From Candidatus Thalassarchaeum sp. (GTDB lineage: Archaea; Thermoplasmatota; Poseidoniia; Poseidoniales; Thalassarchaeaceae), in contig JAKUOA010000001.1 in NCBI GenBank assembly GCA_022451235.1, positions 40,401-104,400 on the forward strand: 64,000 bases of DNA, written 5' to 3'. The notes beneath the pieces are model-generated. The model worked only from the letters and a program-made list of their open reading frames with translations. It had not been told where the DNA came from and made no database searches. Shown one piece after another: positions 34,006 to 39,009 of the stretch (positions are counted from its first letter, which is position 1; every line of letters starts with the position of its first letter). The position numbers and the translations under genes were made by a program.

Positions 34006-34021
34006 TTTAGGCGGCCCTAAA
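34006..34021. promoter_or_regulatory. Palindromic box A, TTTAGGCGGCCCTAAA (TTTAGG-N4-CCTAAA), upstream of phnC
   Basis: Perfect 6-bp inverted arms. Lies 14-30 nt upstream of the phnC ORF start, next to an AT-rich TATA-like ATATAT (34024-34030). One of four copies in 5 kb. Confidence 0.6.
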
Positions 34022-34078
34022 CCAATATATGGTATTGATGGGTTTAGTGATAACAAAATATCTTACGAATCAGATAAC

Positions 34079-36175
34079 TTATATCGATTCTTGCAAGAAT
34101 GAATAGGCTCCGGGTACAACACTTACCACCTCAGATAGCAAGCCAAGATGTTCTTGTGAATTTGTTCTAACAATCCCTGTACCATCGAGTATATTGTTTA
34201 GAATTTCATCACCACAGATTTCCCTATTATTATCTGAATTTACCTTGTGTGTAGAAATATCGTAACAACCAGTATATGTTCCAAATCCGGGTCTAGAATA
34301 ATTCTCTAGATACATCTGATAATTCAAAGTAACTAAGGCGTTGAGAATAGCGGCTCTACTTCTAGAATCAAGAGTCGAAGGGTTGTACATTACAGATTCA
34401 CTTGGAGACACACCGACTTGACCCAAAGATAGGTACTGGTCAATTTCCATGCACCAATCTTGATTTTCTTGTTCTTCTTGATTACAATTTTCTTCTAGTG
34501 CATCTTCTCCGACGAATGCTATTTCACTTACATTTTCGGATAGGCAGCTAATCGCACCTACCTCTCCCGCAGGGGTGCTTGAAGATGAAAGAAGAGATGA
34601 TTGATTTCCAAAATAGCCGCGTATTGTTTCGATAATCTCGACATTTTCTTGATTAGGCGAATAATACTCATTTTCAATTAGATAATGAATAGGAAGAATT
34701 GTGTGAATTGGAGATTGAGAACCGGTGAAGCAAGACACTCTTCCCTGCATCATTGCAAATGGATCGGTGCTAGATTCATTGTCTGAACTTGCGGTAGCCA
34801 ATTCTCCTAAATTTGAGACTAAGGCCATAGAATACCGCTGAGTCAATTGATCTTTGTTTTGTATGGCTCCTAGAACTGATAGATTATGTAATTTCCATCC
34901 AATTAACGAAGAAGATGAAGGAAGAAATCCAATATGAGCCTCGCCTGTTTCAATTGATTCAATCATTTCTGATTGAGAATTAACATAGTGAATTGAAACA
35001 TTAATTCCTAATTCTATGGATAAAAATTCGGCTAAATGGATCGGGTCACTATTGGTTTCTAATTTTGATTCATCTAGTTCAAATGCAACAATTAATTCTT
35101 CTATTGTTATTGTTATTGATTGACTTCCATTATCGGTATAATAAGCTGAAATCCCAGGGATATTCGAAACCAGAGGCGTGTATATACCAAGATGAGATTC
35201 AGAATCTGTAGAAACTACACCCTTTGTCCCTAGTGTGTTGTAGAGAATTTCGCTGTAATCCTCGTTTGAACTAAAGTCAATTAGAAAATCCGTAAGTTCA
35301 CTGATTACTAAATCATCATCAAAATTAGAATGAGTCATGAAAACATCACTGGGGGTCTTAGCGAATGGTTCGAGAGAAACATATCTCGAGGCATCCAAAC
35401 ACCATTCTTCGACATTATTTCCATTTTCTGTGGTGCAGTATTGAGAGACCGTGTTATCCTTCGCAAATGCAACCTCACCGGAACCATCTGAAAGACATCT
35501 TAGAGCCCCTGAAAATCCATAGTACTGTGTGCCAGGTTCCGGAATTGATGAGTTTTCGTTAAAGAATTGAAAAATTGTATTTCTTAGAGATTCGATATCA
35601 TTTGGATCGCCAATTACATTTGCATACCCCAATCCAAGGAAGAATCCCATTGGAACCATCATTCCTGTTGAGTGTAACCAACCCGTATGGCAGGAAGTTT
35701 TGCCTTGCATCAGTGAGAATGGATTTGTTAGCGGATCATCGTCAAAATATGCTTCTGCGATATCGCTATCGTCGAGAACCCAAGCGAGAGAATTGTAGTA
35801 TGTCCTGCCGTCTGATTTTTGGTCCGCTGCAAAAGCCTGCAAACCGTATTGATTCCACCCAATCCAAGCAGCACCGCTATCCATTAGAGCGATGTCGGCA
35901 TTTCCAAACCTTAGTGCCTCGAGTATCGCTGCTTCTGAATCAACGGCATATATTGTAAAATCAAATCTACTGTTTTGGGTAAGAATTTCTGCCAGCATCT
36001 CAGGATTAGTTTCTGACTCAAGCATACCTTCGGACACTTCGAATGCCAGAACAATGGGAGTTCTTGTTTGATTATTTGATTCTTCAGAATCACTCAAGCA
36101 ACCAGAGAGAGTGCTAGAAAGCAGGATAATGGTATAACAAATGACCAGTATTTTGTAATGTCTTTTTGTCGGCAT
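34079..36175 (-). CDS. Bilobal transferrin-family lipoprotein in the substrate-binding (phnD) position of the ABC operon
   Basis: Lipobox-like LSGCLSD. Lobe 1 has ALMDSGAAW, RTYYNSLAWV, QGKTSCHTGWLHSTGMMVPMGF and YYGFSGALRCLSDGSGEVAFAKD. These correspond to transferrin blocks LDAG, [28 protein letters not shown] and YSGAFKCLKDGAGDVAFVK. Lobe 2 repeats the fold with degenerate motifs (QGRVSCFTGSQSP, GAISCLSENVSEIAFVGED). Confidence 0.75.
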   Translation of the reverse strand: MPTKRHYKILVICYTIILLSSTLSGCLSDSEESNNQTRTPIVLAFEVSEGMLESETNPEMLAEILTQNSRFDFTIYAVDSEAAILEALRFGNADIALMDSGAAWIGWNQYGLQAFAADQKSDGRTYYNSLAWVLDDSDIAEAYFDDDPLTNPFSLMQGKTSCHTGWLHSTGMMVPMGFFLGLGYANVIGDPNDIESLRNTIFQFFNENSSIPEPGTQYYGFSGALRCLSDGSGEVAFAKDNTVSQYCTTENGNNVEEWCLDASRYVSLEPFAKTPSDVFMTHSNFDDDLVISELTDFLIDFSSNEDYSEILYNTLGTKGVVSTDSESHLGIYTPLVSNIPGISAYYTDNGSQSITITIEELIVAFELDESKLETNSDPIHLAEFLSIELGINVSIHYVNSQSEMIESIETGEAHIGFLPSSSSLIGWKLHNLSVLGAIQNKDQLTQRYSMALVSNLGELATASSDNESSTDPFAMMQGRVSCFTGSQSPIHTILPIHYLIENEYYSPNQENVEIIETIRGYFGNQSSLLSSSSTPAGEVGAISCLSENVSEIAFVGEDALEENCNQEEQENQDWCMEIDQYLSLGQVGVSPSESVMYNPSTLDSRSRAAILNALVTLNYQMYLENYSRPGFGTYTGCYDISTHKVNSDNNREICGDEILNNILDGTGIVRTNSQEHLGLLSEVVSVVPGAYSFLQESI

Positions 36176-36271
36176 TGATCAAAACCTCTGTCTACCCGAC
36201 TCTTGCTCAGGATGCTGATTTTTCAATGTTAGTCCTGAAGGAAATAACATAATTTTCAGTTTAATCCTGGT

Positions 36272-36340
36272 GTTGACAGGGGAACCTGTGATGTGTACAG
36301 ATTGCTCCTATGTGACGCTGTTAGAGTCCCCCCTGCCAAC
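36272..36340 (-). repeat. Long-range inverted repeat / hairpin element 1 (arms GTTGACAGGGG and CCCCTGCCAAC)
   Basis: 11-nt arms at 36272-36282 and 36330-36340. The single arm mismatch is A.C on the plus strand but a G.U wobble on the minus-strand transcript. Confidence 0.5.
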
Positions 36341-36370
36341 GGGTATTGCCAATGCTATTGGCTAAGGTTG

Positions 36371-36444
36371 TTGACAGGGGGCCTATTGCGTTCGAATACG
36401 AAATTCGAATGTAGGTGTCAGGCGCTGATACGCCCCCTGCCAAC
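36371..36444 (-). repeat. Long-range inverted repeat / hairpin element 2, with the same arm sequences as element 1
   Basis: Arms TTGACAGGGGG (36371-36381) and CCCCCTGCCAA(C) (36433-36444). It shows the same G.U-compatible asymmetry. The loop contains an internal hairpin TTCGAAT-acgaa-ATTCGAA. Confidence 0.5.
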
Positions 36445-36473
36445 TGTTTTGTCTTATCGACTGGTTACGTACT

Positions 36474-37727: not shown

Positions 37728-37755
37728 CCGGCCGGATAGCGAATCGTATATGAAA

Positions 37756-37771
37756 TTTAGGGCGCCCTAAA
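37756..37771. promoter_or_regulatory. Palindromic box C, TTTAGGGCGCCCTAAA (perfect 16-bp palindrome)
   Basis: Perfectly self-complementary. It abuts the upstream side of the TATA-like element of the lipoprotein promoter. It lies in the divergent intergenic region shared with the GDPD-like gene. Confidence 0.6.
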
Positions 37772-37863
37772 CTCTTGAATCATGCGTGGAAAATTGTCAT
37801 ATAACTGATGAGCAGTCAATTGAATTGGAGACGAGGTTTTTTACTCATTTCTATTCGTAAATA

Positions 37864-38469
37864 TTGGTTTTAGTTACAAGGAGAGGATTAGTCTTGAGGA
37901 ATTTGGGGCATAGATTGGGGGCTTCTGGTACCAAAATGGAAAATACCATTGACGGGCTTATGGATTCATTAGAACAGGTAGATAATAGAAAATTTAAGTA
38001 TTGGGAATTTGATATTAGAGAATCTTTGGATGGAATAATTTTTGTCTTTCATGATGATCAAATACTTGCAGATGGAGAATTAATCGAAACCGCCAAATTG
38101 AATTTCTCTGAAATAATGAAAGCGGGTGAGGATTTGGGGGTAAAGATACCTACATTTTCAGAAGTTGTTGAAATATTGGGTGACCGGAAAGAAGATGTCA
38201 TGGTTGAAGTGAAAGAATTGAGAACTGATGCCGCTAGAAGAACCGTAATCACTGCGATTTCTAGTAAACCAAATTGGAAACTGATGGCTACTCCAACTAG
38301 ATTCTTGGAATCTTTTCCTAGTGAATCCAGGGAGTATTGGGAGCGATTTACTCGAGATTTGGACGTAGAATTCGTTAGAGTTGGCCGCCATAAATTGGAC
38401 CTTTTCAGCGCTTCTAAATCCTATTTTAGGTGGAAATTTGCTCAATTTAAATGGTTTTTCGGGATTTAA
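37864..38469 (+). CDS. Glycerophosphodiester phosphodiesterase-like (GDPD family) protein
   Basis: GHRLGASGTKMENTIDGLMDS and YWEFDIRESLDGIIFVFHDD match the GDPD HR...EN(T/S) and E.D...DG..v.HD motifs. Short at 201 aa. TTG start, start uncertain. Confidence 0.6.
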   Translation: MVLVTRRGLVLRNLGHRLGASGTKMENTIDGLMDSLEQVDNRKFKYWEFDIRESLDGIIFVFHDDQILADGELIETAKLNFSEIMKAGEDLGVKIPTFSEVVEILGDRKEDVMVEVKELRTDAARRTVITAISSKPNWKLMATPTRFLESFPSESREYWERFTRDLDVEFVRVGRHKLDLFSASKSYFRWKFAQFKWFFGI

Positions 38470-38532
38470 TAATGATGACTATTTTGAATTAATTTTTCCT
38501 ACAATTGATTATGAACCCCATTACTCACCCTA

Positions 38533-38967
38533 ATGTTGAAGAAAATGGTCAATACTGATGAGTTAATTGTGGCGCTAAATAATGCTCTCGCTTGGGAATT
38601 GAGGGCTATTGCAATGTATGCTCACTATTCCGCATACGTTTCAGGGATTCATAGATTACAACTTTCGGTATTCTTCAATAATGAAGTAACAGAATCAATT
38701 GCGCATGCTTCAACCGTAAGATCCGCTATAGTGAAATTACACGGTAAGGCCACTACGGAGAGGGCAGAAGAGCCTATTTTACACTCAATGGACTTCCGAG
38801 ATATGTTGGAAGAGGCACACAAAACTGAGTTGAAAGCTAGCGAGACATATGGAGACATTTTACCAATGGTTGAGCAAATTGGGGATAGCGAACTTTTTGA
38901 TGCCCTGGAAGTTATTTACTTTGATGAACTGAGATCTGTAGAAGAATTGAGAATGATGCTTGGTTGA
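38533..38967 (+). CDS. Ferritin-like / bacterioferritin-Dps-like four-helix-bundle protein
   Basis: LIVALNNALAWELRAIAMYAHYSAY parallels bacterioferritin helix A (LN..L..EL.AI.QY). Later Glu/His-containing helices are NNEVTESIAHAS, LEEAHKTELKASETY and FDALEVIYFDELRSVEEL. The spacing of one E/H pair deviates from canonical ExxH. Confidence 0.55.
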   Translation: MLKKMVNTDELIVALNNALAWELRAIAMYAHYSAYVSGIHRLQLSVFFNNEVTESIAHASTVRSAIVKLHGKATTERAEEPILHSMDFRDMLEEAHKTELKASETYGDILPMVEQIGDSELFDALEVIYFDELRSVEELRMMLG

Positions 38968-38993
38968 GATTTAAACATACTATTTATCGTTAG

Positions 38994-39009
38994 TTTAGGG
39001 TGCCCTAAA
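38994..39009. promoter_or_regulatory. Palindromic box D, TTTAGGGTGCCCTAAA, upstream of the monolobal transferrin-like gene
   Basis: TTTAGG-N4-CCTAAA. Begins 5 nt downstream of the TATA-like TATTTAT (38982-38988) and ends 31 nt upstream of ATG 39040. Confidence 0.6.

Follow-up and report, generated by a model that had tools for sequence, protein, structure and literature searches.

A 64,000-nucleotide (64-kb) stretch of the genome of Candidatus Thalassarchaeum sp. (Poseidoniales; assembly GCA_022451235.1, contig JAKUOA010000001.1, positions 40,401 to 104,400), hereafter the window, carried four copies of a 16-bp palindrome, TTTAGG-N4-CCTAAA, at the promoters of genes for a Fea1-like lipoprotein, a transferrin-like binding protein and an ABC transporter. 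Judged from their letters, placement and conservation, these palindromes are very probably operators of a DtxR-family (TroR/IdeR-type) regulator, each bound by one dimer. They appear to sit on the core promoters of a Poseidoniales iron-capture regulon, the assignment to iron being somewhat less firm than that to the family. Repression by the iron-loaded regulator, with derepression at iron scarcity, would be their most likely mode of action. Archaeal metal-dependent repressors of the DtxR family have palindromic operators at the core promoters of metal-uptake operons. MDR1 of Archaeoglobus fulgidus is reportedly a metal-dependent repressor of this family that acts from sites 3' of the TATA box and keeps the polymerase from being recruited, and archaeal DtxR regulons are said to have been predicted, in cultured archaea, by Leyn and Rodionov in J Bacteriol in 2015.

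The pattern TTTAGGNNNNCCTAAA (TTTAGG-N4-CCTAAA) occurred exactly four times in the window, at positions 34006, 37712, 37756 and 38994, and not once in 100 dinucleotide-preserving shuffles of it. Allowing up to two mismatches added no further site in the 64 kb, though about 2.6 were expected by chance, and the 10 kb that follow the window contained no palindrome. The original prediction had listed these four sites with coordinates and sequences that were all exact; its further statements that their number was not due to chance, that the pattern was seen by eye nowhere else in the window and that all four copies were intergenic held under the shuffles, the mismatch scan and the flanking gene coordinates, respectively. 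In the orientation of the target genes, the common form of the four sites (A to D) was G-TTTAGGG-NNN-CCTAAA-Y. The sites and the elements next to them, whose role as TATA boxes is predicted, are:

34006..34021, minus strand: site A, exact match TTTAGGCGGCCCTAAA (TTTAGGGCCGCCTAAA in gene orientation), predicted operator on the promoter of the ABC ATPase-permease genes
34022..34032, minus strand: TATA-like element CCATATATTGG, directly 5' of site A in gene orientation
37712..37727, minus strand: site B, exact match TTTAGGTCTCCCTAAA, predicted proximal operator of the Fea1 gene, 2 nt from its ATG
37746..37755, minus strand: TATA-like element TTTCATATAC, lying between sites C and B in the Fea1 promoter
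37756..37771, minus strand: site C, exact match TTTAGGGCGCCCTAAA, a perfect palindrome, predicted distal operator of the Fea1 gene
38994..39009, plus strand: site D, exact match TTTAGGGTGCCCTAAA, predicted operator of the operon of the 356-amino-acid (aa) transferrin-like binding protein
39010-39019, plus strand: AT-rich element CATTATCAAA, directly 3' of site D, likely a TATA box

Site A was flanked by the gene for a 698-aa binding protein, with its stop at 34079, and by the ABC ATPase gene, which starts at 33992; sites B and C lay between the starts of the Fea1 gene (37709) and of a GDPD gene (37864), and site D between the stop of a ferritin-like gene (38967) and the start of the 356-aa binding protein gene (39040).

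The palindromes were conserved across Poseidoniales at the promoters of the same genes. A first search for Fea1 homologs returned sequences at least 98% identical only, unfit for footprinting, and a species-dereplicated genome collection was used, with one genome per species; 73 loci with a Fea1 relative (41-100% identity) were taken with 10 kb on each side of Fea1, 1.09 Mb in total. Except for two contigs, these loci were labeled Poseidoniales, Euryarchaeota or Methanobacteriota. The two exceptions (L135 and L146) were Poseidoniales-type Fea1 loci with operators present (79% and 73% identity) filed under a Rhodobacteraceae and a Dehalococcoidia metagenome-assembled genome, and are probably mis-binned contigs. 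The exact motif was found 154-157 times against 0.06 expected, and 146 of 157 exact copies fell in the 6% of sequence outside open reading frames (ORFs; those of at least 100 aa were masked). All but two or three copies lay at most 200 nt upstream of the genes for Fea1, the 356-aa binding protein, the ABC ATPase, a 704-aa protein or a ZIP-M28 protein.

An exact site was present at most 100 nt upstream of 66 of 72 Fea1 genes, 27 of 32 orthologs of the 356-aa binding protein gene (mostly 25-32 nt from the ATG) and 29 of 53 orthologs of the 704-aa gene, and it preceded the orthologous ABC ATPase by 7-31 nt in 21 loci. No operator was found within 100 nt upstream of the genes for the 698-aa protein (0/36), the GSDH-like protein (0/33) or the permease (0/45), which are therefore likely downstream members of operons. 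The 704-aa gene followed site D in the window, and in most species it was divergent from Fea1 and had operators in common with it; from this arrangement, regulon membership appears to be kept despite changed gene order. In one species (L145, 3668-6034), an exact operator lay 30 nt upstream of a gene for a 773-aa fusion of an M28 peptidase domain with a ZIP metal transporter, and in some Poseidoniales the operator stood between a binding-protein gene and a divergent ABC ATPase gene. A scan of related genomes had been proposed along with the original prediction, which would have failed on a motif dispersed without promoter association; over these 73 species the motif was instead confined to promoters of the same iron-related genes, and its conservation goes well past what neutral drift would allow.

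Half-sites and spacing were identical to those of two experimentally defined DtxR-family sites (PMC8464063, PMC10783522). Structures of IdeR on DNA show one CCTAA repeat read per subunit, repeats 1 and 3 of the 19-bp box being covered by a single dimer; a half box is likewise bound by just one IdeR dimer, and the 14-bp TTAGGNNNNCCTAA (TTAGG-N4-CCTAA) has been proposed as the IdeR/DtxR consensus (PMC8464063). The iron box resembles the window motif in its CCTAA repeats for winged-helix domains, with one dimer over TTAGG-N4-CCTAA. In Haloferax volcanii, the chromatin immunoprecipitation sequencing (ChIP-seq) motif of TroR, an iron regulator of the DtxR family, is TTTAGGC-NNN-CCTAAAANAN; iron-uptake promoters often have several copies, and in the siderophore operon one of two copies, either one, is enough for iron-dependent repression (PMC10783522). 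With TroR operators the window motif shares, besides half-sites and spacing, the archaeal promoter setting and the occurrence of multiple copies at iron-uptake promoters. All four window sites and 154 orthologous sites had the one-dimer form TTTAGG-N4-CCTAAA. The likeness to a DtxR/IdeR iron box seen at the outset was borne out, and could be sharpened to this one-dimer form and to the TroR motif.

The window-type sites also differed from both known operators. The TroR motif has a C at the first spacer position and an A-rich 3' tail, whereas position 7 was mostly G in window-type sites and their flanks were loose; it lies about 100 nt upstream of start codons (PMC10783522), compared with 0-70 nt in Poseidoniales loci. 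TroR targets siderophore synthesis in a haloarchaeon, while Fea1 and transferrin-like capture in uncultured marine Thermoplasmatota would be concerned here. The canonical IdeR/DtxR box is 19 bp long and takes two dimers on opposite faces, and the actinobacterial iron box belongs to sigma-70 promoters, in contrast to the archaeal TATA and TFB recognition element (BRE) of the present promoters. Over 146 distinct sites, neither the spacer (positions 7-10) nor the 3' flank (positions 17-21) showed the TTAG/CTAA conservation of the two-dimer box TTAGGTTAGSCTAACCTAA, and a second repeat pair was missing. With positions 17-21 unconserved, one dimer per site appears to be the rule, and any cooperativity would act between sites 43-45 bp apart. 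The Fur box is an AT-rich 7-1-7 or 19-bp GATAATGATAATCATTATC-type repeat. A Fur box was ruled out for the palindromes, as the conserved TTTAGG/CCTAAA surrounds a G+C-rich center and neither the window nor the 73 loci showed a Fur homolog.

The genes next to the sites pointed to iron. Gene identities in the window were assigned with Pfam, and the genes and predicted transcription units around the sites are:

32398-33285, minus strand: ABC permease (BPD_transp_1, 6.3e-16)
33282-33992, minus strand: ABC ATPase (ABC_tran, 1.5e-31)
32398..33992, minus strand: predicted ATPase-permease operon, target of site A
34079-36175, minus strand: 698-aa two-lobed transferrin-like binding protein (Transferrin, 2e-21; Phosphonate-bd, 3.9e-24; two stretches each)
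36474-37709, minus strand: 411-aa Fea1-like lipoprotein (Fea1, "low iron-inducible periplasmic protein", 3.2e-19)
34079..37709, minus strand: predicted unit under sites C and B, with the Fea1 gene, a 298-nt spacer and the 698-aa gene, presumably co-transcribed
start 37864 to stop 38967, plus strand: GDPD-like gene, then ferritin-like gene
39040-40110, plus strand: 356-aa transferrin-like binding protein (Transferrin, 1.1e-17; also Phosphonate-bd)
between the 356-aa and 704-aa genes, plus strand: GSDH-like beta-propeller protein (GSDH, 8.6e-22)
41262-43376, plus strand: 704-aa surface protein (a weak Big_9 match alone)
39040..43376, plus strand: predicted operon under site D, with the genes for the 356-aa, GSDH-like and 704-aa proteins

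The 356-aa protein matched animal transferrins (ovotransferrin, lactoferrin) directly in PDB (E 5e-19), and it kept the Asp/Tyr/Tyr iron-ligand motifs and the SCHTG...SAG carbonate (anion) site, with the His ligand replaced by Asp. Family membership of the Fea1-like lipoprotein and the direct transferrin matches with ligands kept indicate that this island of genes concerns iron. Iron-related neighbors were a ferritin-like gene in the window, and FecCD, ferrochelatase and flavodoxin genes in other species. The same archaeon thus held a one-lobed (356-aa) and a two-lobed (698-aa) transferrin homolog, the latter form paralleling the duplication in animal transferrins. Fea1/ISIP2a-family lipoproteins, best known from algae, occurred in at least 73 Poseidoniales species (L121-L193), some of them with an insertion that brings the protein to about 550 aa; the Fea1-like lipoprotein had no sequence match in PDB.

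The sites occupied three kinds of position in the promoters of the Fea1, transferrin-like and ABC ATPase genes, in each of which they abutted a TATA-like element or the start codon, TATA boxes and transcription starts being placed from sequence and spacing alone. In orthologous ATPase promoters, a conserved CCATATAT(G/T)GG stood directly 5' of the site and a conserved CCATATATGG 2-3 nt ahead of it, which would put the site between TATA box and start. In Fea1 promoters, the distal site ran at once into a conserved CCTAAA-ttT.ATAtAc (58 distinct orthologous promoters), so that site C abuts the TATA-like element at the BRE position. A proximal Fea1 site was found in 34 orthologous promoters, mostly at a distance of 0-2 nt from the start codon, and the paired sites were 43-45 bp apart in 35 of 38 pairs; with a start predicted about 25 nt past the TATA box, transcription would begin inside the proximal site (site B). 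Promoters of the site-D type had the consensus GTTTAGGttACCCTAAATTTtAtc (21 distinct orthologous promoters), the site being followed by TTTTATC. The center of CATTATCAAA lies about 26 nt before the ATG, which together with the site-to-ATG distance of 25-32 nt suggests a leaderless mRNA. The earlier placement of the TATA-like elements stood for site A, with the conserved CCATATATTGG upstream, and for sites C and B, which bracket the Fea1 element, but failed for site D, where the upstream element CTATTTATCG was not conserved in orthologs and the conserved AT-rich element followed directly downstream (CCTAAA-TTTTATC).

In all three layouts a bound protein would obstruct TFB/TBP or RNA polymerase, and the positions of the sites at BRE/TATA, between TATA box and start, and on the start would fit repression. 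With iron sufficient, an Fe(II)-loaded regulator would bind each 16-bp site as a single dimer, with one TTAGG/CCTAA half-site for each of its winged-helix domains and one helical turn between the half-sites. It would sit at the TFB contact on the BRE, directly upstream of the TATA box, at sites C and D, between TATA box and start site at site A, and on the start site at site B; since every site overlaps the predicted core promoter, binding would keep TBP/TFB or RNA polymerase off. With iron scarce, the regulator would lose its metal and leave the DNA. The derepressed set would then comprise the Fea1/ISIP2a-like lipoprotein, the one- and two-lobed transferrin-like proteins, the ABC importer and the large surface protein.

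Genes of the DtxR family were found directly behind the same operator in metagenomes. The scan of these asked for the operator and, 9-69 nt further on, a stretch encoding E-x-Y-[LIVMF]-x-x-[LIVMF]-[YF], the peptide with which the DNA-binding domain of DtxR proteins usually begins; among the matches listed (at least 120 loci) 117 of 124 downstream ORFs were DtxR/MntR homologs by phmmer. The DtxR-family ORFs among these matches fell into 105 clusters when grouped at 90% identity, and the G+C content of their contigs ranged from 28 to 76%. The peptide pattern by itself would not select one family, and among the matches listed the 16-bp operator precedes DtxR-family genes in many lineages, which suggests that members of the family often regulate their own genes through this site. 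On these contigs (L197-L316), more than 100 different DtxR-family genes had the operator immediately in front of them, sometimes in two copies, and some of the regulators had a C-terminal FeoA-like domain. IdeR of Thermoplasma acidophilum (PDB 4o5v) was distantly similar to the operator-linked regulators. A 14-letter pattern, GTTTAGGGNNNCCTAAA, gave at least 120 scattered single matches in a viral collection; a genome-wide census of large collections by DNA pattern would therefore drown in chance matches.

Several observations weigh against a DtxR-family iron repressor at these sites. Searches with DtxR (query sequence checked against PDB 1bi0), MntR and Fur by phmmer matched none of the stop-to-stop ORFs in the window or in the 73 loci, and the same queries recovered the 117 DtxR-family genes from the metagenome loci. 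The 10 kb past the window end likewise showed no regulator, so that the presence of the regulator in the lineage is assumed. None of the 120 metagenome loci listed with an operator-preceded DtxR gene had the acidic proteome and G+C of Poseidoniales, and the peptide pattern biases that scan, which gives an association and not an unbiased census. The operator sequence alone does not separate iron from manganese or zinc, and activation, too, could be served by a site immediately 5' of the TATA box, by analogy with TroR, which activates dpsA. Finally, a Pfam family of phosphonate-binding proteins also matches the binding proteins, and the island includes a GDPD gene. A phosphate or phosphonate regulon, prompted by these PhnD-type matches and the GDPD gene, was rejected on the direct animal-transferrin match with iron ligands and on the DtxR-type operator.

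Should the same operator and family serve a manganese or zinc sensor (MntR- or ZntR-type), the transporters would carry that metal. DtxR-family members of differing metal specificity use related palindromes, many of the operator-preceded metagenome regulators scored higher against Bacillus subtilis MntR than against DtxR, and the ZIP-family transporter was among the regulated genes in one related species. Such a sensor is nevertheless unlikely: the core regulon combines Fea1, of a low-iron-inducible family, with transferrin homologs that have Fe(III) ligands and a carbonate site, the closest characterized motif belongs to the iron regulator TroR (PMC10783522), and the neighboring genes (ferritin-like, FecCD, ferrochelatase, flavodoxin) are iron-related.

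Activation might instead be the main role of the regulator, which from a position just 5' of the TATA box would recruit TBP/TFB under some condition to the promoters of the Fea1 and binding-protein genes. A TATA-like element does directly follow sites C and D and their orthologs, a placement known for some archaeal activators, and TroR has been reported to activate dpsA in Haloferax. We consider this improbable, more so than a different metal, because the sites abut or overlap the BRE position instead of lying further upstream, sites A (between TATA box and start) and B (on the start) hold classic repressor positions, and metal-loaded DtxR proteins repress uptake genes in all studied cases (PMC8464063, PMC10783522).

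A transcription factor of an unrelated family could read the same palindrome by coincidence, an explanation that draws on the lack of a DtxR gene in the window, the 73 loci and the 10 kb past the end, and of any Poseidoniales-like contig among the metagenome loci listed. The sole regulator seen in the window was an HTH_10 (Bat-type) protein (6166-6822), and Pfam likewise gave no DtxR or Fur among the conserved neighbors and small window ORFs, only this protein. Its gene lies 27 kb away, between XdhC-like and 2Fe-2S subunit genes (5266-7446), and it is probably a local regulator of that molybdenum hydroxylase cluster, unrelated to the palindromes. Coincidence is very improbable given the identity of half-sites and spacing with the IdeR and TroR sites and the 117 DtxR genes among the 124 ORFs listed from the scan.

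The letters of the sites were those of a protein-binding DNA site. Over the 73 loci there were 157 exact, 24 one-mismatch and 22 two-mismatch copies, with about 39 of the last kind expected by chance; one-mismatch copies mostly changed the outermost T or had TTTCGG in a second site, and nearly all two-mismatch copies fell within genes. The central N4 was free to vary (146 distinct sites) apart from the preference for G at position 7, the base 5' of the site was never C and the base 3' almost never G (1/145), the flanks being weakly constrained in Poseidoniales sites. No compensated stem variant occurred in the 1.09 Mb. All-or-none outer letters, a free N4 and the lack of compensated variants indicate that a protein reads the site as DNA, and not that it forms an RNA stem. 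RNA hairpins (terminators, attenuators or stability elements) or a dispersed repeat are scarcely credible, even though each site can form a 6-bp stem with a 4-nt loop and site A sits between two same-strand genes: besides the missing compensation, there was no T-run after the sites and no Rfam match in 33900-39200, sites C and D lie upstream of TATA-like elements and would be untranscribed, and species with as little as 41% protein identity keep the sites at fixed places next to the same genes.

Taken over the order, the sites suggest that Poseidoniales may possess a compact, order-wide iron-starvation regulon that is not siderophore-based and captures iron at the surface with algal- and animal-type proteins (Fea1/ISIP2a and one- and two-lobed transferrins) under single-dimer DtxR-type operators on BRE/TATA and start; we put the chances of this wider picture at about even. 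In a more radical variant, Poseidoniales could do without a canonical DtxR, another protein reading the site. The type of switch is already well known; of value are the organism and the make-up of its regulon, an archaeal set with Fea1/ISIP2a-like and transferrin-like proteins, and not the mechanism. Iron limits much of the surface ocean, where the uncultured Marine Group II (MGII; Poseidoniales) rank with the most abundant archaea. In the searchable literature we found no earlier description of this switch for Poseidoniales, nothing on iron sensing or acquisition by MGII and no paper linking DtxR with MGII or Poseidoniales; the word "iron" is absent from the comparison of 270 MGII genomes by Rinke et al. 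2018. A sentence of the TroR preprint placing DtxR orthologs in MGII was not used, as the published version says Crenarchaea.

A strictly conserved operator would allow genes switched on at iron scarcity to be recognized from sequence alone and followed in metatranscriptomes in a lineage-specific way. If the regulon is real, operator-linked genes would serve as in situ iron-stress markers for this uncultured group, and its content would bear on the origin of transferrin and phytotransferrin. The sites would also provide a natural case in which the one-dimer TTAGG-N4-CCTAA, recently proposed as the DtxR/IdeR unit, is the sole form used, and would extend the haloarchaeal TroR motif to a distant archaeal phylum.

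Further features accompanied the island. In several species (L137, L147, L163, L164 and neighbors), it included a FecCD/Peripla_BP_2 ABC transporter, a ferrochelatase, a flavodoxin and a CREG/DUF2470 (heme-utilization-like) protein. The 298-nt spacer between the Fea1 and 698-aa genes (36176-36473, minus strand) contained two long tandem hairpins with near-identical 11-12-bp stems, GUUGGCAGGGGG...CCCCCUGUCAAC. Its minimum free energy was -97.7 kcal/mol (z = -5.8), and owing to a G-U pair the fold forms on the gene strand alone. In several other species the same spacer again contained the stem word GTTGGCAGGGG. No Rfam family matched the spacer, which could serve in processing, stability or attenuation inside the operon. 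Orthologs of the 704-aa protein (53 loci) were about 670-700 aa long, with a hydrophobic C-terminal anchor, and appeared to share the regulation of the iron genes. Beside the 704-aa gene, the window encoded a 265-aa protein (43333-44130) with an Arg/Gly-rich middle and two RanBP2-type zinc fingers (PF00641, 2.8e-19), unusual in archaea. This protein adjoined the 704-aa gene in 44 of the 73 loci, and was followed by a TPR protein.

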